Source: Candidatus Wildermuthbacteria bacterium
GTDB taxonomy: Bacteria; Patescibacteriota; Minisyncoccia; Minisyncoccales; UBA10102
Length of the DNA: 35,317 bases
Assembly: GCA_016186115.1 (NCBI GenBank)
Contig: JACPMK010000001.1
Location: forward strand, 1-35,317
Reading direction: 5' to 3'
The position numbers were made by a program, and so were the translations under genes. The notes below the pieces were generated by a model. That model was not told the origin of the DNA. It saw only the letters and a program-made list of their open reading frames with translations, and searched no databases. Of this stretch, positions 1 through 35,317 are shown in pieces. Numbering within the stretch: position 1 is the stretch's first letter; each line of letters opens with the position of its first letter.

Positions 1-141
1 CAGAACCCATTTTGCGGAGAACCCCGATTGACCGCCTCCGCTTCGCTCCGGCGGGACGCTCGGGCGCGGCGGAATTCCCCCCACACCCCCCTTCCGCCGC
101 GCCCTCGCTTCTGGCATTCCGGCGAAAAAATCCGACGGCTA
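1..141 (+). repeat. 141-bp GC-rich structured repeat, copy 1 (may be truncated by window edge)
   Basis: Exact reverse complement of 3081..3221. Internal hairpins CCGCC-TCC-GC-TTC-GC-TCC-GGCGG (32-54) and a 13-bp stem GGGCGCGGCGGAA/TTCCGCCGCGCCC (62-74/92-104). Confidence 0.95.
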
Positions 142-186
142 CATTGAAAAAAGAATGGGAAGTTGATATGATTCTATTGCAAGTCA

Positions 187-221
187 TAAAATGTATTATA
201 TCACTTTCCATACATTATAAT
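187..221 (+). promoter_or_regulatory. Putative -10 box (TATAAT 216-221, near-leaderless) overlapped by an inverted repeat that may be the XRE operator
   Basis: TATAAT lies 5 nt before ATG 227. AATGTAT (190-196) and ATACATT (210-216) form an inverted pair. Confidence 0.4.
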
Positions 222-226
222 CTACT

Positions 227-427
227 ATGTCCACAATAGGCAAGAACATCAAGAAATTTCGGCAGGAAAAAGAGCTTTCGCAAGATAAGCTGTCTAAACT
301 TGCCGATTTATCACTCAATACGGTTGTTAAGATAGAACTGGATGAAAGCCCGAACCCGACCATTGAGACAATCCAAAAAATTGCGAAAGCTCTTGATGTT
401 TCGGTTGATGATCTCTTGAAAAAATAA
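227..427 (+). CDS. XRE/Cro-family helix-turn-helix regulator
   Basis: IGKNIKKFRQEKELSQDKLS...IE...NPTIETIQKIAKALDVSVDDL is a typical HTH_3 pattern. Confidence 0.9.
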   Translation: MSTIGKNIKKFRQEKELSQDKLSKLADLSLNTVVKIELDESPNPTIETIQKIAKALDVSVDDLLKK

Positions 428-428
428 T

Positions 429-1124
429 ATGAACAGACCATATACAACTTTATTTTTGTTAGTTTCAGTGGACGGAAAAATTTCTACTGGTGATACCGAC
501 ACAATGGATGTTGATAAGGATTATCCAAGAATTGATGGGGTGAAAGAGGGTCTGAAGCAGTACTATGATTTAGAGATGGAAACCGACCTATTCTCTCTAA
601 ACACGGGGCGCGTTTTTGCAAAAGTCGGAATGAACGAAAAGACGGACGAACCAAAGAAATTACCAGTTAGTTTTGTTGTGATAGATAACGAACCACACCT
701 GACAGAGAGGGGTGTTTCTTATCTTGCAAAGAAATCAAAAAATCTTATTGTCGCCACCACAAACAAAACTCATTCTGCCATATCGCTAAAAAATAAATTC
801 GATAACATTAGTGTTTTTGAATACCAAGGAAAAGTAGATTTTGGAGATTTATTTTCTAAATTGAAAGAACAATTTGGTGCGGAGAGACTTACTATTCAAT
901 CAGGTGGTACCCTAAATACCACTCTCGTTAGAGAGGGTCTAGTTGATCGTGTTTTTCTTGTGATAGCTCCTGCGCTTGTTGGTGGTAAAAACACCTCCAC
1001 ATTGATGGATGGCGAGTCTCTGCACGCTCCCGATGAGCTAAATAAAATCAAGGCTCTTGAATTGGTAGAGGCAAAACCCCTTAAAAATTCCTACCTGCTT
1101 TTGGAGTACAAAGTCAAAAATTAG
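429..1124 (+). CDS. RibD C-terminal / dihydrofolate-reductase-fold protein
   Basis: SVDGKI N-terminal motif, QSGGTLN, EGLVDRVFLVIAPALVGG. Confidence 0.85.
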   Translation: MNRPYTTLFLLVSVDGKISTGDTDTMDVDKDYPRIDGVKEGLKQYYDLEMETDLFSLNTGRVFAKVGMNEKTDEPKKLPVSFVVIDNEPHLTERGVSYLAKKSKNLIVATTNKTHSAISLKNKFDNISVFEYQGKVDFGDLFSKLKEQFGAERLTIQSGGTLNTTLVREGLVDRVFLVIAPALVGGKNTSTLMDGESLHAPDELNKIKALELVEAKPLKNSYLLLEYKVKN

Positions 1125-1125
1125 T

Positions 1126-1674
1126 ATGTCAATAAAAATCACTTATTTTGTTCACGGAACTACGACTGATAACGAACAACATATTTCCTCTGGCTGGAAA
1201 GATATTGAACTCTCGGAACTCGGCGTGAAGCAGTCCATAGAACTGAGAGAGCAGACCAAAGATAAAAATTTTGATGTCGTGTTCTGCTCTGATCTTAAAC
1301 GCGCTTATAACTCCGCAAAACTCGCTTGGGAGGGCATCTGCGACATTATTCCCGACGCACGGCTTCGTGAGTGCAATTACGGCACACTAAACGGGGCATC
1401 ATCGGACATTGTTGAACCCATGCAGGAGGACGAGGCAATCACGAAGCCGTTTCCAGGCGGCGAAAGTTATGAAGATGTTAAAGCCCGTGTCGCGGATTTT
1501 CTCGCGTTCCTAAAACAAAACTACGACGGTAAACACATCGCCATTGTCGCGCACAAAGCGCCACAACTTTCGCTGGATGTGCTCCTCAAGGGTAGGACAT
1601 GGAGACAAGCACTTGCCGAGGATTGGCGTAAGGCCAAAGCATGGAAACCAGGCTGGGAATATGAATTGGAATAG
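1126..1674 (+). CDS. Histidine phosphatase (phosphoglycerate mutase-like) family protein
   Basis: VHGTT (RHG variant), SDLKRA, LRECNYG, PGGESYEDV, IVAH. Confidence 0.85.
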   Translation: MSIKITYFVHGTTTDNEQHISSGWKDIELSELGVKQSIELREQTKDKNFDVVFCSDLKRAYNSAKLAWEGICDIIPDARLRECNYGTLNGASSDIVEPMQEDEAITKPFPGGESYEDVKARVADFLAFLKQNYDGKHIAIVAHKAPQLSLDVLLKGRTWRQALAEDWRKAKAWKPGWEYELE

Positions 1675-1676
1675 TT

Positions 1677-3083
1677 ATGGAAAAACAGATTATTACAATC
1701 GGATACATAATACCGACATTTGATGAAAATCATATTGATTTTTATAGCGGGGCGTCTTTGATGGATGCTGATATTCTACTAATTTCTCCAGAATCATTTG
1801 AGCCAAGGGGAGGTTATGGGAGTTGGATCGAATTTTCTTCAGGAGGAGGTTGCTACAATGCTTCAACATCAAGTGAATACGAGAAAAAAATATCTCATCT
1901 CAAAAAAGAAGTAACGGATTTTTTACAATCTGGAAAAAGTGTTTTTGTCATTTTGTCTAAAGAAGAAAGTCATCTACTTTCATCTGGCGTATCTCACCCC
2001 AGGAAAGGGGAAAATTTACACAGTACATATACGAAAACTAACTATGATTTTTTACCAATCAGTATTGGTACACTAGTGTCCGCCTCCGGGAAAAATATTG
2101 AATTTTCTGGAAACCCACTATTCAGCGATTTTCACGAAAAATTTAAGAAGAGTTTGGAATATCAGCTCTACATTGAGAATCCGGGTAGTGCTCAAGTGAT
2201 TTTTACCGGAAAAGACAAGACGAAAATTCTAGGTGCAATTTATAAAGTTAAAAATGGACATCTTGTAGTATTACCACTCATAAATTATGACGAGAAAAAA
2301 TTTACCGAACACAGGGGTAAGGGTAAAGAAAAGAAAGCATATTGGACAAAAGAGGCAATACAATTCGGCAAATCTCTAGTTAAAACACTTGTTGATGTAG
2401 ATAAAGCTCTTCGCAAAAGCGGAGACAGAACCCCACCTCCCGATTGGACTAGTCAAGCAGATTTTCAATTAACTCAAGAGCAGGTTTTACAGAAAGAGAT
2501 TGAGAAGAAATCAACGGAAATTGATAAGCTCATTTCGCAAAAAAGTGAATTACAGGAGAAAATAGAACAAGAAGTGAGATTGCGTGATTTACTTTTCGAG
2601 AAAGGAAAAATACTTGAAAATGCAATTAATATCGCATTGGAAATTTTGGGTTATACAGCGGAAAATTACAACGACGGAAACCTTGAAATAGATCATGTTA
2701 TCACTTCGCCGGAAAAAGATCGATTTATTGGTGAGGCAGAGGGAAAGGATACTTCTGCGGTAAACATTGAAAAATTCAGCCAGCTAACAAGAATCATTCA
2801 AGAAGATTTACGGAGGGAGGAAGTCGAAAATCCTGCAATTGGTATTTTGTTTGGGAATGGCTTTCGACTGACAAAGCCATCTGAAAGAGTAGAACAATTT
2901 ACGACCAAGTGTATTAGCACTGCGAAGTCATTAAATTGTGTTTTGGTGAGAACGCCCGATTTGTTCCGAGTCGCAAAATACGTAAAAGAGTCTAGGGACG
3001 ATTCTTTTGCGAAAAGCTGTCGAGATGTTATAAAAGATAGTATTGGGAAAATTGTTGATTTTCCTGAAATACCAAAAACATAG
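1677..3083 (+). CDS. Hypothetical protein with coiled coil and C-terminal PD-(D/E)xK-like nuclease-type domain
   Basis: Long AT-rich ORF. Coiled coil QKEIEKKSTEIDKLISQKSELQEKIEQE; LENAINIALEILGY...IDHVI...FIGEAEGK resembles a restriction/Mrr-like fold. Confidence 0.55.
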   Translation: MEKQIITIGYIIPTFDENHIDFYSGASLMDADILLISPESFEPRGGYGSWIEFSSGGGCYNASTSSEYEKKISHLKKEVTDFLQSGKSVFVILSKEESHLLSSGVSHPRKGENLHSTYTKTNYDFLPISIGTLVSASGKNIEFSGNPLFSDFHEKFKKSLEYQLYIENPGSAQVIFTGKDKTKILGAIYKVKNGHLVVLPLINYDEKKFTEHRGKGKEKKAYWTKEAIQFGKSLVKTLVDVDKALRKSGDRTPPPDWTSQADFQLTQEQVLQKEIEKKSTEIDKLISQKSELQEKIEQEVRLRDLLFEKGKILENAINIALEILGYTAENYNDGNLEIDHVITSPEKDRFIGEAEGKDTSAVNIEKFSQLTRIIQEDLRREEVENPAIGILFGNGFRLTKPSERVEQFTTKCISTAKSLNCVLVRTPDLFRVAKYVKESRDDSFAKSCRDVIKDSIGKIVDFPEIPKT

Positions 3084-3221
3084 CCGTCGGATTTTTTCGC
3101 CGGAATGCCAGAAGCGAGGGCGCGGCGGAAGGGGGGTGTGGGGGGAATTCCGCCGCGCCCGAGCGTCCCGCCGGAGCGAAGCGGAGGCGGTCAATCGGGG
3201 TTCTCCGCAAAATGGGTTCTG
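3081..3221 (-). repeat. 141-bp GC-rich structured repeat, copy 2 (inverted)
   Basis: Exact reverse complement of 1..141. Its first 3 nt on the + strand are the TAG stop of the 468-aa ORF. Confidence 0.95.
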
Positions 3222-3263
3222 ACCACCAAAATCCAAAATAACTATTCGAGTCAACGCTAATCT

Positions 3264-3845
3264 ATGCAAAAAAGAGTATTTTTAATTCACGGTTGGGACG
3301 GTTCGCCGGATAGCTGCTGGTTTCCGTGGCTCAAAAACGAATTAGAGCAGCGAGGTTTTGCGGTTGAAGTTCCGGCAATGCCCAATCCCGAAGCGCCAAA
3401 GATTGAGGAATGGATACAATATCTTTCGCAATTGGCAGGCGATGCCGACGAAAATACCTATTTTGTCGGGCACAGCATGGGATGCCGCGCCATTCTTGGT
3501 TTTCTGCAAGGGATCGATGAGGCAAAAAGGATTGGCGGGGCTGTTTTGGTTGCAGGATGGATTAGTTTGTCGCCGTACGCCTTTGAAAGCGAAGAGGATA
3601 AATTAGTTGCCCAGCCATGGCTTCAGATGCCGATTGATTGGGACAGAGTCAAAAAAGTAGGCAACAAATTTGTAGCGATTTTTTCCGATGACGATCCATT
3701 CGTTGCATTGGAAGAAAACAAAGCAACATACGAAGAAAAACTCGGCGCAAAAATAATCGTTGAGCACAACAAAGGGCATTTTAGCGACGACGCCGGCGTA
3801 AAAGAATTGCCCTCTGCCCTCGCCGCCCTTCTCGAAATTGCTTAA
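3264..3845 (+). CDS. RBBP9/YdeN-family alpha/beta hydrolase
   Basis: IHGW, WFPWL, GHSMG nucleophile elbow, SDDDPFV, GHF. Confidence 0.9.
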   Translation: MQKRVFLIHGWDGSPDSCWFPWLKNELEQRGFAVEVPAMPNPEAPKIEEWIQYLSQLAGDADENTYFVGHSMGCRAILGFLQGIDEAKRIGGAVLVAGWISLSPYAFESEEDKLVAQPWLQMPIDWDRVKKVGNKFVAIFSDDDPFVALEENKATYEEKLGAKIIVEHNKGHFSDDAGVKELPSALAALLEIA

Positions 3846-3872
3846 CTAAGTTAAGCAATTCTGCAGTAGTTT

Positions 3873-4229
3873 ATGGCAAAAATTTGGAAATTAAATTTGT
3901 ATCATCATATATTCCCTTACGTGGCGAACGGGGAGAAAACCGTGGAAGGTAGGGCATGGTCGGAAAAAAGAGATTATCGCAGAATGAGGCGCGGCGATAA
4001 AATTATTTTCAGCGATCTCGGCAGCGACAAAAAAGTTACTGCCGCAATCAAAAGCGTACAGCATTACAAAACCGTTCGGGAGTATTTGAAGAAAGAAGGA
4101 TTAAAAAAGTGTTTGCCGTGGGCAAAAGATTTGGCCGATGGCATCGGCATTTATTACGGCATTGCCGAGGACTGGGAAGAGCGCATCCGCCACGGCGGCA
4201 TCTTCGCAATCCGAATAAAAATGCTGTAG
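3873..4229 (+). CDS. ASCH-domain protein
   Basis: GEKTVEGR (GxKxxExR) and GDKIIF. Confidence 0.8.
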   Translation: MAKIWKLNLYHHIFPYVANGEKTVEGRAWSEKRDYRRMRRGDKIIFSDLGSDKKVTAAIKSVQHYKTVREYLKKEGLKKCLPWAKDLADGIGIYYGIAEDWEERIRHGGIFAIRIKML

Positions 4230-4265
4230 GATGAGGAAAAGATTTGGAGAAGTAGAGTTTAATCG

Positions 4266-4293
4266 AAAATTAAGAATTAAACATTAAAAATTC
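4266..4293 (+). repeat. Degenerate heptamer tandem array (4 units)
   Basis: AAAATTA AGAATTA AACATTA AAAATTC. Confidence 0.55.
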
Positions 4294-4299
4294 TGCAAT

Positions 4300-4839
4300 A
4301 TGTATATTCCCATTATTTTGGGCACGGCGAGAGAGGGAAGAAGGGCGGAAAAAGCTGCGAAATTTGTATTGCAGGAGGTTGCGAATGCAGGGATCGAAAC
4401 CGAACTTATTGATGTGCGCGATTTCCCAATTTCTGCAACCGGAGAGCAAGCGCCGGCATTGCAAGAACTTGGCGAAAAATTCAAGCGGGCAGACGGGTAT
4501 ATTATTGTAACGCCAGAGTATAATCACGGCTATCCGGGAGAATTAAAGCAGCTACTCGATTCTTTCTACAATGAGTATGCCAGAAAACCAATCGGGTTTT
4601 GCGGCGTCTCCGGGGGAATTCTGGGTGGTGCGAGGGCAATAGAGCAACTGCGACTGGTTGCGATTGAATTGCACATGGTGCCTATACGCGAGGCAGTGTA
4701 TTTTGGGAACATCAACAATCTTTTTGACGAGCAAGGGAATATTCAGGATCCCTCATGCGCAAAGAGAGTGCAGACCCTTTTAGGGGAGCTCTTGTGGTAT
4801 GCAAAAGCTCTCAAGCCGGCAAGAGAGGAAGGGCGTTGA
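4300..4839 (+). CDS. NAD(P)H-dependent FMN reductase (flavodoxin-like)
   Basis: GTAREGR, TPEYNHGYPGELK, GGARAIEQLR. Confidence 0.9.
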   Translation: MYIPIILGTAREGRRAEKAAKFVLQEVANAGIETELIDVRDFPISATGEQAPALQELGEKFKRADGYIIVTPEYNHGYPGELKQLLDSFYNEYARKPIGFCGVSGGILGGARAIEQLRLVAIELHMVPIREAVYFGNINNLFDEQGNIQDPSCAKRVQTLLGELLWYAKALKPAREEGR

Positions 4840-28929: not shown

Positions 28930-28952
28930 ATTTTGTTCGAGATTTAATGAAG

Positions 28953-29023
28953 AGCGGGTGATGGGAATCGAACCCACGTACTCTGATTGGCAACCAGATG
29001 CACTACCATTGTGCTACACCCGC
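28953..29023 (-). tRNA. tRNA-Gly(GCC)
   Basis: TCTGG-TT-GCC-AA-TCAGA. Confidence 0.95.
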
Positions 29024-29070
29024 AACGTAAGAAATTTCTGAAAGAAATTTCTACGTCTCGCATTTCGCGG

Positions 29071-29142
29071 TGCCGCGGGGGTGAATCGAACACCCGACGC
29101 CATCCTCTTCAGGGATGCGCTCTACCACTGAGCTACCGCGGC
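29071..29142 (-). tRNA. tRNA-Phe(GAA)
   Basis: CATCC-CT-GAA-GA-GGATG. Confidence 0.95.
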
Positions 29143-29166
29143 ATAAATTAAATTGTTACATTGCTG

Positions 29167-29240
29167 TGGGCGCGTCCTGACTCGAACAGGAGACCTTCTC
29201 GGTGTAAACGAGACGCTCTAACCAACTGAGCTACGCGCCC
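29167..29240 (-). tRNA. tRNA-Val(TAC)
   Basis: TCTCG-TT-TAC-AC-CGAGA. Confidence 0.95.
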
Positions 29241-29284
29241 TCTCGGTGGGACGCTGAGCGTCCCCAGAACAACGCTAAGCGTTG

Positions 29285-29369
29285 TGCCCAGGGCGGGAGT
29301 CGAACCCGCACGGCCTTGCGGCCACTACCCCCTCGAAGTAGCGCGTATAGCCAATTCCGCCACCTGGGC
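29285..29369 (-). tRNA. tRNA-Leu(GAG)
   Basis: CTACT-TC-GAG-GG-GGTAG; variable arm. Confidence 0.92.
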
Positions 29370-30993: not shown

Positions 30994-31037
30994 CTTCCCT
31001 CCATGCCCTGCAGATTTTAAAGAGCATTCATGAGATG

Positions 31038-31109
31038 TGGGCGCATCAGGATTTGAACCTGAGACCCCTTCCGTGTCGAGGAAGTGCTCTGCCACTGAGC
31101 TATGCGCCC
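31038..31109 (-). tRNA. tRNA-Val(GAC)
   Basis: CTTCC-TC-GAC-AC-GGAAG. Confidence 0.93.
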
Positions 31110-31798
31110 GTATATTGATTGACAACTTTTTCGCAGAAGAATTTACTTAAAGATAAGAGTTTTCTCTGGATTGCAACATTTCCGCAGCGTATATGGCAGA
31201 CGCCATTATAGTTAGCATAAGTCTTAGAGCCGAGCGTACGTTTGTCTATATTTACCTGTTTGAAACAATTTAATGGGAGTTTCAATTCTCTTGCCCAGAA
31301 TTGTTTTATCTCTTTCGGAATTTGGTCTGCTCGTATGTACAGCTCACACCGTATTTTTTCAACTTCTATGTGATAAATGTTCTGTATAAGTGCGAGGAAG
31401 AATTTTAGGATAAGAGGATCGGAGCTACCAAGAGCAGTTTCTGTATTTTTCTTGGCTCCTTCTCCAAAATATAGAAGCGCTAGAGTTAATTCAAGGATTT
31501 CTTTTTTGAGGACGTCAACCTTTCGTAAGGTGATGAGTGCTTGATTTTCTGCATCCTGCAATCGTTTTGCTTTTTGTGCATTGTGCCACCGAACAGCTTT
31601 GCTTCTTGCTTTCGTTAGTGCTCGTTCCCATCGCAAATGAAGTCGCTCTCGCTGCCTTTTTGTAAGTATCACTTCTTGGAGCCATCCGCTTAGTGTTGAC
31701 CGTGGTATTCCTAATTTTTGTTCGATATTCCTAAGGGAGATTCCTTGCTTTCTCAATTTGAGCGCATCTGGTTTTAACTCGTACCACCTCGATTTCAT
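31100..31798 (-). CDS. HTH plus LAGLIDADG-like hypothetical protein abutting tRNA-Val
   Basis: N-terminal LRKQGISLRNIEQKLGIPRSTLSGW HTH; LALLYFGEGAK helix; stop codon inside the tRNA 5' end. Confidence 0.7.
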   Translation of the reverse strand: MKSRWYELKPDALKLRKQGISLRNIEQKLGIPRSTLSGWLQEVILTKRQRERLHLRWERALTKARSKAVRWHNAQKAKRLQDAENQALITLRKVDVLKKEILELTLALLYFGEGAKKNTETALGSSDPLILKFFLALIQNIYHIEVEKIRCELYIRADQIPKEIKQFWARELKLPLNCFKQVNIDKRTLGSKTYANYNGVCHIRCGNVAIQRKLLSLSKFFCEKVVNQYTGA

Positions 31799-31902
31799 GT
31801 ATCCATGATAACACTTGTTGTTCGGTTAGTAAAAGCTTTCTATCCACAATGTGCCCTTTGTTTGAAAATGCGCGAACCTTCTTTGAACGAAACTGACGCT
31901 CC

Positions 31903-32081
31903 GCCCCGCCGCCGCTCGCTAACGCTCGCCACCCCGCAAAAAAGTTTTCTTCACATTTTTTGATTTGCGCGCCCGATTTTTTCTTTTAAAAGGAAAAGAA
32001 AACTTTTTTGCTGGGTTCTGCTCTGAACGAGCAGGGCGGCGGGGCTTCGCTTCGGCTCGGGCGCGCTTTGGACGCCGACGG
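31903..32081 (+). repeat. Large imperfect hairpin / border element
   Basis: GCCCCGCCGCC (31903-13)/GGCGGCGGGGC (32035-45); GCAAAAAAGTTTTCTT (31936-51)/AAGAAAACTTTTTTGC (31996-32011). Confidence 0.8.
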
Positions 32082-32095
32082 AATTTGTGCCAGCG

Positions 32096-32485
32096 TTAGC
32101 TGGCGCGCCGCTCAAAATTTTTCAAATAATCCTTAATTCTTTCACGGTCTTCGTTTTCTTTTTCGCCCTTGAAATATATCTCAATAAAATCAATTTTACA
32201 ACTTTGGCAATGAAAGGCGTAGATAACTCGTATTCCACTCTTTGAACCCCGCCCTTTTAGGGCCTTGCAAGCGAATTTTTTTATTTTACAAACATAAATT
32301 TCTTCCGTGCAAAAACCTTGTATCGGAAAAACGCTTGAATTATTTATCTTCTGAATATGATAAAACTCAATAGCCGCTATTTTTGCGAGCTCTAAATCAC
32401 TCTCAAGTGATTTGAATTTTTTGAGTAGTTTTTTGAAATCTTTTTGAAATTCCGGCGTTTCGCCATAATTAATCTTGCTGGTCAT
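32096..32485 (-). CDS. RelE/HigB-like toxin candidate
   Basis: TPEFQKDFKKLLKK...KGRGSKSGIRVIYA...IEIYFKGEKEN. Confidence 0.75.
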   Translation of the reverse strand: MTSKINYGETPEFQKDFKKLLKKFKSLESDLELAKIAAIEFYHIQKINNSSVFPIQGFCTEEIYVCKIKKFACKALKGRGSKSGIRVIYAFHCQSCKIDFIEIYFKGEKENEDRERIKDYLKNFERRAS

Positions 32486-33248
32486 AGTTTCTCACAGAAG
32501 TTTTAGGAGTGCGGTAGAATACGGCCTCGTAATCAAGCGGCTGATTTTCTTTCGCAACGAGCCAAGGAGTGTCCTCGTGAGAATATTCGCTTAATTCTGT
32601 GGCGTTCTTATCGCCCAATCTTGCTATTACTTCGTCAATATGACGCAATTCGCGCGCGTCTTTTAATTTTGTCAAATCCGGTTCACGAATTGGCAAGTAT
32701 TTTCTTTGCGGATAATTAAAATATTTTCCTTCTACTTTTACAACCTCGCCGTTTTTGATCATATCGTCAACAATAGTTTTGAACTCAACGGGTGTAGGCC
32801 CATAATGATTTTTAATATATGTCGCGCCGACAAGCTGTTCCTCAAATTTTTCGTAAAAATCAAAATCAATAAAATAAAGCAATTTATAAACCACGGCTTC
32901 GCCGACATTCGGCTTGCCGCCTACTTTTGATAAAACATAAAGTAAAACTTCTTTGAATTTTTCAAGATTTTTTTGAGGAACGCTTATTCTCATTCCTGAT
33001 TTTTCTTCTTTTATTTTTTTCACAATTTTTTTAATCTCTGCCGTATTGGAGGGAACCTTGCCCTTGATAAAATCGTTAAAATCAATGCCAAAAACATCTG
33101 CAAGTTTTTTTGCTTCTGAAATAGTTATGTCACGCTCGCCTTGTTCTATCTGAATATAAGTCGGGCGAGAAACGCCAATCTTTGACGCCAAAAACTCCTG
33201 CGTCAAATTGTGCTTTTTTCGTTGTTCTAATATAAATTTACCAAGCAT
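32469..33248 (-). CDS. XRE-HTH plus Panacea/DUF4065 (SocA-like) antitoxin candidate
   Basis: N-terminal HTH; KLLYFIDF...Y...YGPTP...LSEYSHEDTPW. Confidence 0.82.
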   Translation of the reverse strand: MLGKFILEQRKKHNLTQEFLASKIGVSRPTYIQIEQGERDITISEAKKLADVFGIDFNDFIKGKVPSNTAEIKKIVKKIKEEKSGMRISVPQKNLEKFKEVLLYVLSKVGGKPNVGEAVVYKLLYFIDFDFYEKFEEQLVGATYIKNHYGPTPVEFKTIVDDMIKNGEVVKVEGKYFNYPQRKYLPIREPDLTKLKDARELRHIDEVIARLGDKNATELSEYSHEDTPWLVAKENQPLDYEAVFYRTPKTSVRNYDQQD

Positions 33249-33260
33249 ATTGTTATCTCC

Positions 33261-33333
33261 AGTATAATCCTTGTAAAATTCTTTGTCAAGCCAGTGCCAA
33301 GATATTTGACAAACACCACGAAAGGACTAAAAT
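33261..33333. promoter_or_regulatory. Back-to-back sigma70 promoters
   Basis: Minus strand TTGACA-17-TATACT (33289-33261); plus strand TTGACA-16-TAAAAT (33306-33333). Confidence 0.7.
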
Positions 33334-33497
33334 AAATAGGGAGTGACGATTGTTTGCGGCAATAGCATCTCTCCCCATTCACAGAAATGTCTTTTTCGCC
33401 CTTTGGGGCATTTCAGCTAGACCTGTAATAAACCACAACTTTATTTTAACAGATTTAGACAATTTAATAAACAAGAGCGGTTAATAATCCAAACAAC

Positions 33498-33719
33498 ATG
33501 GTTAATCAAGTATTCGTTAGCCCTGACGGCGAGGATTGGAAAGTTAAGGTTGTCGGTAATCAAAAGGCTTCGGCCATTTGCGACACAAAAGCGGAAGCGG
33601 TTGAGCGCGCCAAAGAAATCGCGCAAAATCAACGCCTTGAACTTCTTGTCCAAAACTTAGACGGGACTATCGGCTGGAGAAATTCCTACGGGAACGATCC
33701 GAGAAAATCAAAAGGATAG
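33498..33719 (+). CDS. DUF2188-like small protein
   Basis: WKVK...AS...TKAEAVERAKEIA...DGTI..RNSYGNDP...KG. Confidence 0.85.
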   Translation: MVNQVFVSPDGEDWKVKVVGNQKASAICDTKAEAVERAKEIAQNQRLELLVQNLDGTIGWRNSYGNDPRKSKG

Positions 33720-33726
33720 AAGATAG

Positions 33727-33759
33727 AAAAAGAACGAGACCGCAACTCGTTCTTTTTTT
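33727..33759. terminator. Bidirectional terminator
   Basis: AAAAAGAACGAG-loop-CTCGTTCTTTTTTT. Confidence 0.8.
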
Positions 33760-33776
33760 GCATTTTTCAAAAATTT

Positions 33777-34862
33777 TTAACTTCTATTTCCCTTTTTAAT
33801 ATTGCAAGGACGGCATCGTAATTCAGCGTTTGAAAGTTCGGTTCTACCGCCCTTACTCCACGGGTCTACATGATCCATTGTTAATTCCTCGGTATAAAAA
33901 TACTTTTTGCAGTCCGCACATTGATATTTATTCTCTTTATTCGGCTTCTTCTTTCTTAAAAATTCTTTTTTGTCGTCGCTAGAAAATAATCTTTTATCGT
34001 CAACGCTGATATTATTAACAATGGCTTGAATAATATCTTCTATTTCTTTTGCTTTATCAGTCAATTTTGCGTCGTCGCTCTTTAAATATCTTTTGACACG
34101 AGAATTTATTTCGTCTTTATTTTGTTTCCATATAACCGAGTCCTTAAAATATTTTCTCGCCAAATCAAAATAAATATCTAATTGTCCATAGTCATCAAAA
34201 ATTTCCCTAACGAATTTAATATATTTGCCTATCTCTCTTTGGTCGTCTGTAAAAGATTTTTTCTGATTTGCATTTATATAGTCGTTTATACTCTGCGCGT
34301 CTTTCGGCAAATTTTTCAATTCCATCAATAATTGCAAAACTCTATATTGATTTTTACCTCGGCTGTTGGCGTTTAGAACTTTCAGCGCGTCTCTATCTTG
34401 CCCGACATAAACAGTTAAACCTCTTAAATACTCGCCGTGAAAAAGGCCGTTCAAGACTTCATAAGGAGAAAGTGGAACGCCCAAAGTGTTAATTCTTCTA
34501 AATATCTCCCTTTTTAATTGTTCTTTGCCTTCACAAACAATGATTGAAAGCTCGGCATTATTGATTATATCTTGAACTTTTTTGTCCGTTTGTTTCCACA
34601 ATTTATCTTGATATTGGATGTCGTTTTCAATAAATTTTTTAATGGCTTCTATTCTTTGTTTGCCGTCCAATACTTCCAAAATTCCTTCGTCATTTTTCCA
34701 AAAATAAAAAGCGGGTAACGGAATCCCATTAACGATACTGTCTATAACTAGTATTTGTTTTCCGGTATCATAAACTATCTCTCTTTGGAGTTCTATGTCG
34801 CTGATAATTTTTCCGTCCCTAAGTTGTTCGTATAAAGTTTTGATATTCATATTATTTTTCAT
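33777..34862 (-). CDS. DUF262 (GmrS/ParB-like) plus HNH endonuclease
   Basis: LQRE, IDSI..GIPLP, LDGKQR, FRRINT.G..L; CADC...DHVDPWSKGG.T..SN...CRPCN. Confidence 0.88.
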   Translation of the reverse strand: MKNNMNIKTLYEQLRDGKIISDIELQREIVYDTGKQILVIDSIVNGIPLPAFYFWKNDEGILEVLDGKQRIEAIKKFIENDIQYQDKLWKQTDKKVQDIINNAELSIIVCEGKEQLKREIFRRINTLGVPLSPYEVLNGLFHGEYLRGLTVYVGQDRDALKVLNANSRGKNQYRVLQLLMELKNLPKDAQSINDYINANQKKSFTDDQREIGKYIKFVREIFDDYGQLDIYFDLARKYFKDSVIWKQNKDEINSRVKRYLKSDDAKLTDKAKEIEDIIQAIVNNISVDDKRLFSSDDKKEFLRKKKPNKENKYQCADCKKYFYTEELTMDHVDPWSKGGRTELSNAELRCRPCNIKKGNRS

Positions 34863-35316
34863 TTTTAATTACCTCTCTATTTTTTATTAAAATTCTTTCA
34901 AAAGGTGCCCTGAAAGGTTTTCCGTCCTTTTCAATCCAGAGCGTAGCCTTATCACCCTTGAACCTTACTGTTTTTTCAACCTGAACCCCTTTTCCTACAA
35001 TCTTAAACTGCTGTGGATTATACTTTGTCAAAAAAGTAACTGGAACACCCATAATACCATCAAAATCAGAAGGTATTTTTTTTGTTTTTTCTACGTCCAC
35101 GCCATTATAATTGTAATATTTTGGGTATTTTTCGGGGCTATAATTCTCCGTCAAAATCATCCTATCGTGCCTATAAGCAACATCCAAATTCGTGTACCAT
35201 TTACAAGCACGAGGCACTGATCCTTCGGGATTTTTTGAAAGAACAAGAGTACCATCAGCTAATCGAAATCCGGATAATTGTTTTGCGTAACCAAGCCACA
35301 TTTTATTGTCTTTTAT
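34852..35316 (-). CDS. EcoRI-family adenine methyltransferase, C-terminal part (5' end outside the window)
   Basis: IKDNKMWLG, WYTNLD, YPKY.NY, IPSDFDGIMGVPVTFLTKYNP.QF; frame open to the window edge. Confidence 0.82.
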   Translation of the reverse strand: MKDNKMWLGYAKQLSGFRLADGTLVLSKNPEGSVPRACKWYTNLDVAYRHDRMILTENYSPEKYPKYYNYNGVDVEKTKKIPSDFDGIMGVPVTFLTKYNPQQFKIVGKGVQVEKTVRFKGDKATLWIEKDGKPFRAPFERILIKNREVIKNEK

Positions 35317-35317
35317 A

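Follow-up and report, generated by a model that had tools for sequence, protein, structure and literature searches.

The stretch of DNA analyzed here (the window) consists of all 35,317 bases of contig C1 of a Candidatus Wildermuthbacteria genome that is assembled in three contigs with 667,097 bases in total. It opens with a four-gene cassette enclosed by a perfect inverted repeat, which we interpret as the probable cargo module of an integrative island that has two parts and that a large serine recombinase (LSR) placed at the 3' end of a transfer RNA (tRNA) gene. The reverse complement of positions 3081-3221 matches positions 1-141 at 100%, with 2939 nt separating the two arms, which confirmed the exact 141-bp inverted repeat claimed in an earlier reading made from the sequence alone (the sequence-only reading). 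The arms have a G+C content of 67%, compared to 38.9% for the cargo and 45.0% for the remaining window. In each arm, we also found the structures that had been described, namely, a 13-bp GC stem around a C-rich loop, which reads G6-TGT-G6 on the other strand, and a GCGAAGC motif. The main hairpin lies at 65-101 on the plus strand, with a 17-nt loop that starts with ATTCC, and its right-arm copy, with the same 13-bp stem and 17-nt loop, lies at 3121-3157. The left arm (a, 1-141, no strand), the exact reverse complement of 3081-3221, is truncated by the contig start, as position 1 of the window is the first base of C1. The right arm (a', 3081-3222, no strand), the ends of which we judged by comparison with two related genomes (G008 and G160), contains the hairpins and the P-type half of an attachment site on the attR side. 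Directly adjacent to it lies the sequence CCAC (3223-3226, plus strand), a core that is common to the 3' end of tRNA-Ala(cgc) and that we presume to be the crossover region; at the same tRNA-Ala(cgc) in the single-contig relative G224, the core is likewise CCAC. The repeat should reach outward to this core. Upon searching all three contigs, we found only two copies of the full 141-mer, whereas its hairpin core recurred at two further positions (C2:303790 and C2:93359). The supposition of an assembly break at a multicopy element was thus half right: the contig start is a break at a repeat, but a multicopy element inside this genome is ruled out, given two full copies and a recurrence of the hairpin core only.

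All four genes of the cassette are read from the plus strand. Just inside the left arm, two overlapping promoter-like sites (144-192, plus strand), which are consensus matches not commoner than in shuffled sequences, lie upstream of a gene for an HTH_3 (XRE-type) regulator (227-427; Pfam HTH_3, E=3e-14). PADLOC labels the product a CapH-like control protein, and its best NCBIfam match, RstR, scores 47 bits against a cut-off of 80, amounting to ordinary HTH_3 likeness. The gene is followed by those for a RibD_C-like pyrimidine reductase family protein (429-1124; Pfam RibD_C, E=5.5e-22, under all NCBIfam cut-offs), a histidine phosphatase (branch 1) family protein (1126-1674; Pfam His_Phos_1, E=6.8e-31), and a 468-aa protein of no family (1677-3083). 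For this last protein, no relative was found in Pfam, NCBIfam, or PDB; PADLOC yielded a weak match to a coiled-coil stretch, and its look-alikes in a protein atlas are clusters of 463-473-aa hypothetical proteins from several phyla. Its TAG stop codon is indeed supplied by the right copy of the repeat, being the first 3 nt of that arm (3081-3083). A Pfam scan of the open reading frames (ORFs) of the cassette gave no recombinase domain, in agreement with the earlier statement that no recombinase lies between the copies, and PADLOC recognized no defence system in the cargo. Beyond the core, the chromosomal flank (flank Y, 3227-3845, plus strand) carries a Ser_hydrolase gene (3264-3845), followed by ASCH, FMN_red, and NusA genes.

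Related genomes show such a cassette as one half of a larger element. In G029, where both flanks are assembled, a perfect 152-nt arm pair surrounds 2.2 kb of cargo and abuts a perfect 114-nt pair that brackets the gene of a 526-aa LSR, with the far arm of the LSR module overlapping the 3' end of a tRNA-Leu. We found the same two-module layout mid-contig at G160:C15, G160:C7, G258, G102, and G202, in the single-contig 1.16-Mb genome G224, and in five public contigs (L152, L159, L188, L241, and L262) that include Harrisonbacteria, Magasanikbacteria, and others. Each module is bracketed by its own long inverted repeat, of which the repeat in the window is the a/a' pair, and each arm combines an attachment (att) half-site of ~30-40 nt beside the core with conserved GC hairpins. 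The 3' end of the LSR gene is encoded within arm b of its module. A single rule described the sites in 7/7 complete loci: site 1 consists of the tRNA end, the core, and b; site 2 of the inverse of a', the core, and b; and site 3 of a', the core, and flank Y, with a core of 3-9 nt that equals the last tRNA bases in all seven. In the complete loci, the core forms a direct repeat around the whole island and an inverted one around the cassette alone. Judging from their sequences, sites 1 and 3 would behave as attL and attR, and site 2 looks like an inverted attP, of which arm a of the window (1-141) would constitute the inner part.

From these loci, we deduce an island that would run from the tRNA, core, and b through the LSR gene (pointing toward the tRNA) to b', core', and a, and from there through the HTH gene and cargo (pointing away from the LSR) to a', the core, and flank Y. 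Recombining at the core, the LSR would insert this island at the end of the tRNA. As sites 1 and 3 are direct and site 2 is inverted to both, the mobile unit is expected to be the whole island and not the cassette alone. To short words, the junction of an excised circle looks like the internal site, as the arms are at least of read length.

The recombinase family is widespread. The LSR, which has Resolvase, Recombinase, and Zn_ribbon_recom domains in a sister island on C2 and in the relatives, was present in 111 of the 301 genomes of the order (E up to 1e-30), often with several genes per genome, and its nearest solved or named relatives are the A118 integrase, SPbeta SprA, CcrA/B, and XisF, all far under the family cut-offs. 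We examined the 30 best LSR loci in detail, including those of the genome studied here. A tRNA gene was located within -120 to +400 nt of the LSR 3' end in 28 of these 30 loci and was convergent with the LSR gene in 28/28. A b/b' repeat of 66-159 nt with 74-100% identity was present in 24/30, and two of the six loci lacking it have too little upstream sequence to judge. In 14 arm pairs, the mismatch rate between b and b' was 2% within the 20 nt adjoining the core and reached 10-29% at a distance of 80-120 nt; hence, the core-proximal part of the arm is the part that is kept alike. Many LSR genes begin 130-420 nt from a contig start, indicating that site 2 breaks assemblies as a rule. Separately, we observed in G224, G194, and G202 (L098-L108) a second, unrelated family of a-type arms that lacks the C-rich-loop hairpin and has the same architecture, which suggests that the layout is older than any single arm sequence.

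Within the genome studied here, we located four LSR genes, all beside tRNAs, as well as two arm remnants. The first bases of C3 lie within an LSR gene that leads into tRNA-Ala(cgc), itself preceded by tRNA-Pro(cgg), and C2 begins inside an LSR gene that runs into tRNA-Ala(tgc); the two genes share ~89-93% DNA identity over 390-490 nt. The empty site in relatives consists of tRNA-Pro(cgg) and tRNA-Ala(cgc) followed either by NusA within 185-235 nt (G316 and G324) or by a Ser_hydrolase gene (G319), and in G007, tRNA-Ala(cgc) is followed by 3.3 kb, an arm core, and FMN_red. On C3, tRNA-Ala(cgc) ends with CCAC and continues into arm b, and in the window, the CCAC at 3223-3226 continues into the flank, such that the CCA end of the empty sites reappears once the tRNA side of site 1 is fused with the Y side of site 3. 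Based on the synteny in relatives, the shared CCAC, and this restored CCA end, the cassette most likely belongs to an island at tRNA-Ala(cgc) on C3, with its LSR just off the contig start. The 5' part of the LSR gene, b', and the outer tip of a were probably left unassembled because the LSR genes at the starts of C2 and C3 are ~90% identical. These results replace the notion of a stand-alone, non-autonomous element acted on in trans, since the cassette would be one module with the LSR of the island immediately beside it, beyond the contig start. The more general idea of a mobile cassette survives in part: the cargo is variable and would be mobile within its island, but by the logic of the sites, only the whole island could be excised and not the cassette by itself.

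That such a repeat flanks variable cargo elsewhere was found at 17 further paired cassettes and at 8 loci in relatives. The 17 cassettes hold 69 ORFs and 65 Pfam families, including 11 HTH_3 proteins, 8 DNA methylases, four different type II endonucleases, Vsr, and 3 AAA_15/21 ATPases, next to non-defence cargo such as AhpC, a pyridine-nucleotide oxidoreductase, a Na/Ca exchanger, and others. In the relatives, we found Dcm with a partner, DUF262/GmrSD, SMODS with AGS_C, and an SDH protease. The cargo elsewhere is thus variable and consists mostly of defence genes (restriction-modification and others). The HTH_3 regulator, by contrast to this changing cargo, is a conserved first gene beside the recombinase-proximal arm: a 65-73-aa HTH_3 gene came first in 5/8 complete loci, and among the 121 listed loci with the exact 31-mer of the hairpin, an HTH homologue lay just inside the arm at 28 hairpins and elsewhere at 1. 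For 4 runs of 2 studies, we additionally placed the public k=31 Logan contigs on window 1-4300. One contig from run X4 tracks the window as far as 426, where the HTH gene ends, and its following 230 letters differ from the window, representing a co-occurring variant that carries other cargo behind the same arm and regulator. Shared arms and HTH genes together with differing cargo indicate that the backbone stays common while the cargo changes, and we suggest that cargo may be swapped between islands through this conserved arm-plus-HTH backbone.

The polarity of these elements was largely uniform, as cargo reads away from the LSR in 8/8 complete loci, the LSR and HTH genes are divergent in 11 of the 12 listed loci that have both, and the hairpins form inverted pairs in 17 of the 19 listed loci with two hairpins. 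This polarity argues against a phase-variable segment, in which the adjacent serine recombinase would flip the cargo between inverted outer sites, as Cin does with the P1 C segment, an explanation that we regard as unlikely. Several features are compatible with it: sites 2 and 3 are inverted and have common inner halves, a serine recombinase adjoins the cassette, the arms are perfect, and one locus shows the opposite orientation of LSR relative to HTH. That locus, on the public contig L147 (900-6291), is the sole one of the 12 in which the LSR points at the HTH-proximal arm; its LSR is flanked by two full inverted a'-core-b copies of ~320 nt, and either the module may be flipped there or the assembly may have followed a path along 168 nt of identical sequence. 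Yet inversion is difficult to reconcile with the outward reading of cargo at every complete locus, with the 28/28 convergence of LSR and tRNA, and with the prevailing LSR/HTH divergence. Moreover, the cargo has promoter-like sites of its own inside the arm (the consensus matches at 144-192, no commoner than in shuffles), and the enzyme is a large integrase-type serine recombinase rather than a small invertase. These orientation counts compare genomes with one another, and, as short reads are blind to an inversion across arms of >=141 nt, a minority state is possible. The invertible segment put forward by the sequence-only reading is, accordingly, geometrically feasible given the inverted sites, but the fixed orientation speaks against it.

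A number of observations weigh against the island reading or against its application to this genome. The join of the C3 start to the C1 start would span an unsequenced stretch, and the 191-aa C-terminal LSR fragment at the C3 start had no Pfam match and was only 30% identical to the C-terminal part of the reference LSR (tblastn). The C2 start, at tRNA-Ala(tgc), is an alternative partner that would share a longer core with site 3. Furthermore, the window lacks 16-23 letters that the flank-covering public contigs have before 3222 in 4/4 runs (21 in X1, 16 in X3, 23 in X4, and 16 in X5), and these letters are those with which arm a' canonically ends in G008 and G160; the attR half-site may thus carry a 16-nt deletion or an assembly slip in this assembly. 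Word-overlap arithmetic on the 21, 16, 23, and 16 letters gave no consistent fit to three candidate partner arms, and we did not use it as evidence. The LSR of L147, directed to the HTH-proximal arm, breaks the expected order as well. Finally, the internal site poses two difficulties. According to the abstract of PMC3783163, attP with attB is the sole pair that serine integrases recombine in the absence of a directionality factor, so that an internal attP would have no known role, and the island reading offers no reason for keeping an inverted copy of it. In addition, were the circle double-stranded, its two identical, inverted attP sites should allow insertion in both polarities, yet a single polarity is observed. 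The other one, in which read-through from the tRNA would drive the LSR, may be removed by selection, or else the mobile form itself is polar.

By analogy with the phage CTXphi, such a polar form might be a single-stranded circle in which the inverted copies pair into a double-stranded attachment site, in this case for a recombinase of the serine class. We give this idea a rather slim chance. It is suggested by the order of attL, LSR, inverted attP, cargo, and attR, by the fixed polarity, and by arms that are complementary within elements and diverge between them. No serine recombinase is known to exchange single strands. Two further schemes were discarded: double-strand recombination of a folded single-stranded circle leaves, on paper, hairpin-capped chromosome ends instead of the observed order, and insertion of one element behind another in tandem, like that of a cargo circle within a recombinase element, fails because sites 2 and 3 share no dinucleotide in direct orientation.

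The hairpin is conserved in structure and widely distributed. Its consensus fold has 8 pairs, with compensatory double changes at 8/8 among 25 aligned copies from different genomes, and the ATTCC at the loop start was invariant in 25/25; a conserved 2x2 internal loop and two further pairs, read off the alignment, flank the stem. This covariation and the invariance of the loop suggest that the hairpin functions either as RNA or as single-stranded DNA. The orientation of the hairpin relative to the core varies among lineages. No curated Rfam family matched the arms (window 1-3400, E up to 1), and a scan for intrinsic terminators, whose loop limit of 8 excludes the main hairpin, found none in the arms. 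The exact 31-mer of the hairpin was present in at least 120 species-representative Patescibacteria genomes, with titles among the matches listed that include Saccharibacteria, Peregrinibacteria, Woesebacteria, Doudnabacteria, Magasanikbacteria, Giovannonibacteria, and many more. The listed matches also comprise a few contigs binned as Gammaproteobacteria, Bacteroidia, Lentisphaeria, Paludibacter, and Dadabacteria, which are possibly mis-binned Patescibacteria fragments. Within the order, the GC-rich arm core was 86-100% identical in 26/301 genomes, mostly as inverted pairs 1.5-5 kb apart and strikingly frequently at contig ends.

This spread of the hairpin across many genomes, along with the long, hairpin-bearing terminal inverted repeats and the lack of a transposase between them, would also fit a non-autonomous transposon (MITE/PATE-like) that is moved in trans by a DDE or HUH transposase. 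We nevertheless consider a transposon improbable. In the complete loci, the cassette is bounded by an inverted core without a direct target-site duplication, and it always abuts an LSR module next to a tRNA; the full 141-mer, moreover, occurs only twice in the genome. The Pfam scan that found no transposase between the arms covered the cassette ORFs, and the rest of the genome was not searched for transposases.

An assembly artefact, in which the left copy would be a fold-back or chimeric end produced by a de Bruijn graph assembler at k=141, appears very improbable as well. It would account for a repeat of exactly 141 nt at the very start of a contig, and an unrelated genome provided a parallel in a 3213-nt contig (G259:C2) with perfect terminal inverted repeats of, again, exactly 141 nt. 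The k=31 public contigs, however, include the left junction: in 4/4 runs, a contig runs from 112 across 141/142 into the cargo, reaching 222, and in 4/4 runs, the right inner junction is covered by a contig from the cargo to 3110. The depth of the outer-arm contig was 94.8 in run X1, compared to 46-47 for cargo and flank, and 19.7 in run X3, compared to 9.5-11. This doubled outer-arm depth, together with both inner junctions, indicates that there are two arm copies per genome and that the left junction is real, hence not the chimeric or misassembled contig end against which the sequence-only reading had cautioned. The same structure is, furthermore, internal to long contigs and to a single-contig genome. 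Two joints in the public contigs (111 to 3111 and 1154 to 1462) had 21-nt sides in a single run and were disregarded. What the assembler sets is the length of the left arm only and not its existence. As G259:C2 has ends of exactly 141 nt and arms lying inside contigs measure 114-315 nt, the length of 141 most likely reflects the word length of the assembler. The default largest k of MEGAHIT is 141, and several related public contigs carry names of the form k141_....

Least credible of all is an independent linear replicon or virus with inverted terminal repeats (ITRs), for even though whole contigs of 3.2-4.7 kb consist of arm, cargo, and arm (G259:C2, G310:C29, L181, and L197) and a 4386-nt IMG/VR contig (L264) has 99-nt perfect ITRs, the cassette continues into 32 kb of chromosome, its depth is about that of the flank (46 versus 47-54, 9.5 versus 11, 19.5 versus 22, and, in X4, 16 versus 11.4), its cargo proteins have no replication or capsid families in Pfam, and graph assemblers emit ITR contigs for repeat-bracketed segments, with L264 looking like a cargo module output by the assembler rather than a virus.

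Further traces of the island family lie elsewhere in the genome. At the C2 end, beside tRNA-Ile(tat), there is a complete recombinase module (C2:393561-395297; L005 4264-6000), in which a 119-nt arm comes after tRNA-Ile(tat) and the inverted 119-nt arm closes the contig; the 527-aa LSR ORF between them meets no stop in the first arm and extends across it into the tRNA complement. This contig end resembles the C1 start, as the last 119 nt of C2 recur inverted, with one mismatch, 1.55 kb further inside. A join of the C2 end to the C1 start, by analogy with G029, was ruled out by synteny. In five relatives, FtsH, tRNA-Ile(tat), and tRNA-Val(gac) lie together, with the tRNAs 2-178 nt apart, which constitutes the empty site for the sister island; in the genome studied here, FtsH, tRNA-Ile(tat), and the LSR are found at the C2 end, and tRNA-Val(gac) is found at window 31037-31109. 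This synteny indicates that the C2 island joins the end of C1. There, the window contains a second island of the family (31100-35317), with an a-type arm at ~31850-32130 and cargo at 32096-35317. The cargo encodes an HTH_3 + SocA/Panacea antitoxin (32469-33248, minus strand) with a 129-aa partner (32096-32485, minus strand), a DUF2188 protein (33498-33719, plus strand), a GmrSD_N + HNH protein (33777-34862, minus strand), and an EcoRI-type methylase fragment (34852-35301, minus strand) that is cut by the contig end.

Other observations concern scattered parts. A fourth, distant LSR lies at C3:3159-4415 beside tRNA-Arg(tcg). Arm-like remnants of the same hairpin family, with no LSR nearby, are present at C2:303750-303850, 0.8 kb from tRNA-Ser(gga), and at C2:93300-93440, adjoining tRNA-Gln(ttg). 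The end of C3, judged by eye, apparently lies inside a 16S ribosomal RNA gene. In G008 (C9:17000-26000; L022), the tRNA cluster Leu-Val-Phe-Gly, which is compact in the window (28952-29369), is interrupted twice, with 3.2 kb separating Val from Phe and 2.7 kb separating Phe from Gly. The Val/Phe insert contains an HNH endonuclease, a LexA-S24-methylase fusion, and an a' arm, and 172 nt downstream of the tRNA-Phe 3' end, 19 nt of that end are repeated.

The genomes of Patescibacteria are tiny, and few mobile elements have been described in them. As restriction-modification and further defence genes lie behind a conserved regulator in these islands, we suggest that the islands are a main route by which the bacteria acquire and exchange immunity genes. 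An attachment site that is internal and inverted, and arms that are long, perfect, and structured, clash with what is known of serine integrases and, hence, pose a testable mechanistic question. If the single-stranded circle proved true, it would represent a mode of serine recombination or a life cycle that has not been described so far, and the element would be a pan-Patescibacteria carrier of defence cassettes. The repeats also have a practical consequence, in that they systematically break assemblies and generate small ITR contigs that are open to being misread as complete linear viruses or to being mis-binned. Full-text literature searches returned no description of a two-module layout with an internal inverted site; the main text of PMC12455944, whose supplement may hold island tables, has no occurrence of recombinase, integrase, tRNA, or inverted repeat.

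Among known systems, the element probably belongs to the LSR islands at tRNA genes, with the internal inverted site as its unusual feature. As in the islands and prophages of A118 Int and SPbeta SprA, which are the nearest solved relatives of the LSR, and of Bxb1, the recombinase (in the sister island and the relatives) has Resolvase, Recombinase, and Zn-ribbon domains, and insertion is at a specific site with a short shared core, hybrid end sites, and empty sites in relatives. Unlike these islands, the element has a complete, inverted, presumed attP between recombinase and cargo, the 3' end of its LSR gene lies inside an att arm, and it measures ~5-9 kb without phage genes. The att sites of large serine recombinases are ~50 bp in length, whereas the arms here span 90-315 nt. 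The staphylococcal cassette chromosome (SCC) with CcrA/CcrB resembles the island in being an LSR-driven carrier of interchangeable accessory genes at the 3' end of a conserved gene. The composite sites of SCC are direct repeats, in contrast to the inverted internal site found here, and the target here is a tRNA rather than rlmH. The best NCBIfam match of the LSR was CcrA, at 85.8 bits against a cut-off of 700, followed by 73.2 against 900 for CcrB, and by these scores, the LSR is not a Ccr protein.

More distant systems share single traits with the island. In CTXphi, XerCD recombines a folded single-stranded attP, the stem of which is formed by two inverted copies, with dif; the order of attL, short segment, inverted full site, long segment, and attR observed here would fit such a one-strand insertion of a single-stranded circle. 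Unlike in CTXphi, the recombinase here belongs to the serine class, for which only double-strand cleavage is known, the loops would measure 1.4 kb and 2-6 kb, and there are no filamentous-phage genes. The segments inverted by serine invertases (Mu G/Gin, P1 C/Cin, and Salmonella H/Hin) have an adjacent recombinase and inverted repeats, and they share with the island the serine class of that recombinase and the position of the crossover sites at the outer ends of the repeats; here, however, the recombinase is large, the orientation is fixed across genomes, and the cargo consists of whole operons with their own regulator instead of alternative gene ends. The yeast 2-micron plasmid is a circle split in two by two long inverted repeats with FLP sites, and the excised island would likewise be a ~5-9-kb circle in which two inverted copies of 250-450 bp divide a recombinase part from a cargo part. 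It differs in that the recombinase is a serine and not a tyrosine recombinase and in that the element is integrated at chromosomal depth, with no replication genes recognized. Integron cassettes, finally, are similarly promiscuous, small, and variable in their genes and carry a structured recombination element (attC). In contrast to integrons, the neighboring recombinase is of the serine class (the genome was not searched for IntI), the arms form inverted pairs (17/19 listed two-hairpin loci) and not direct arrays, and the cassette, by the logic of its sites, could leave only as part of its island.

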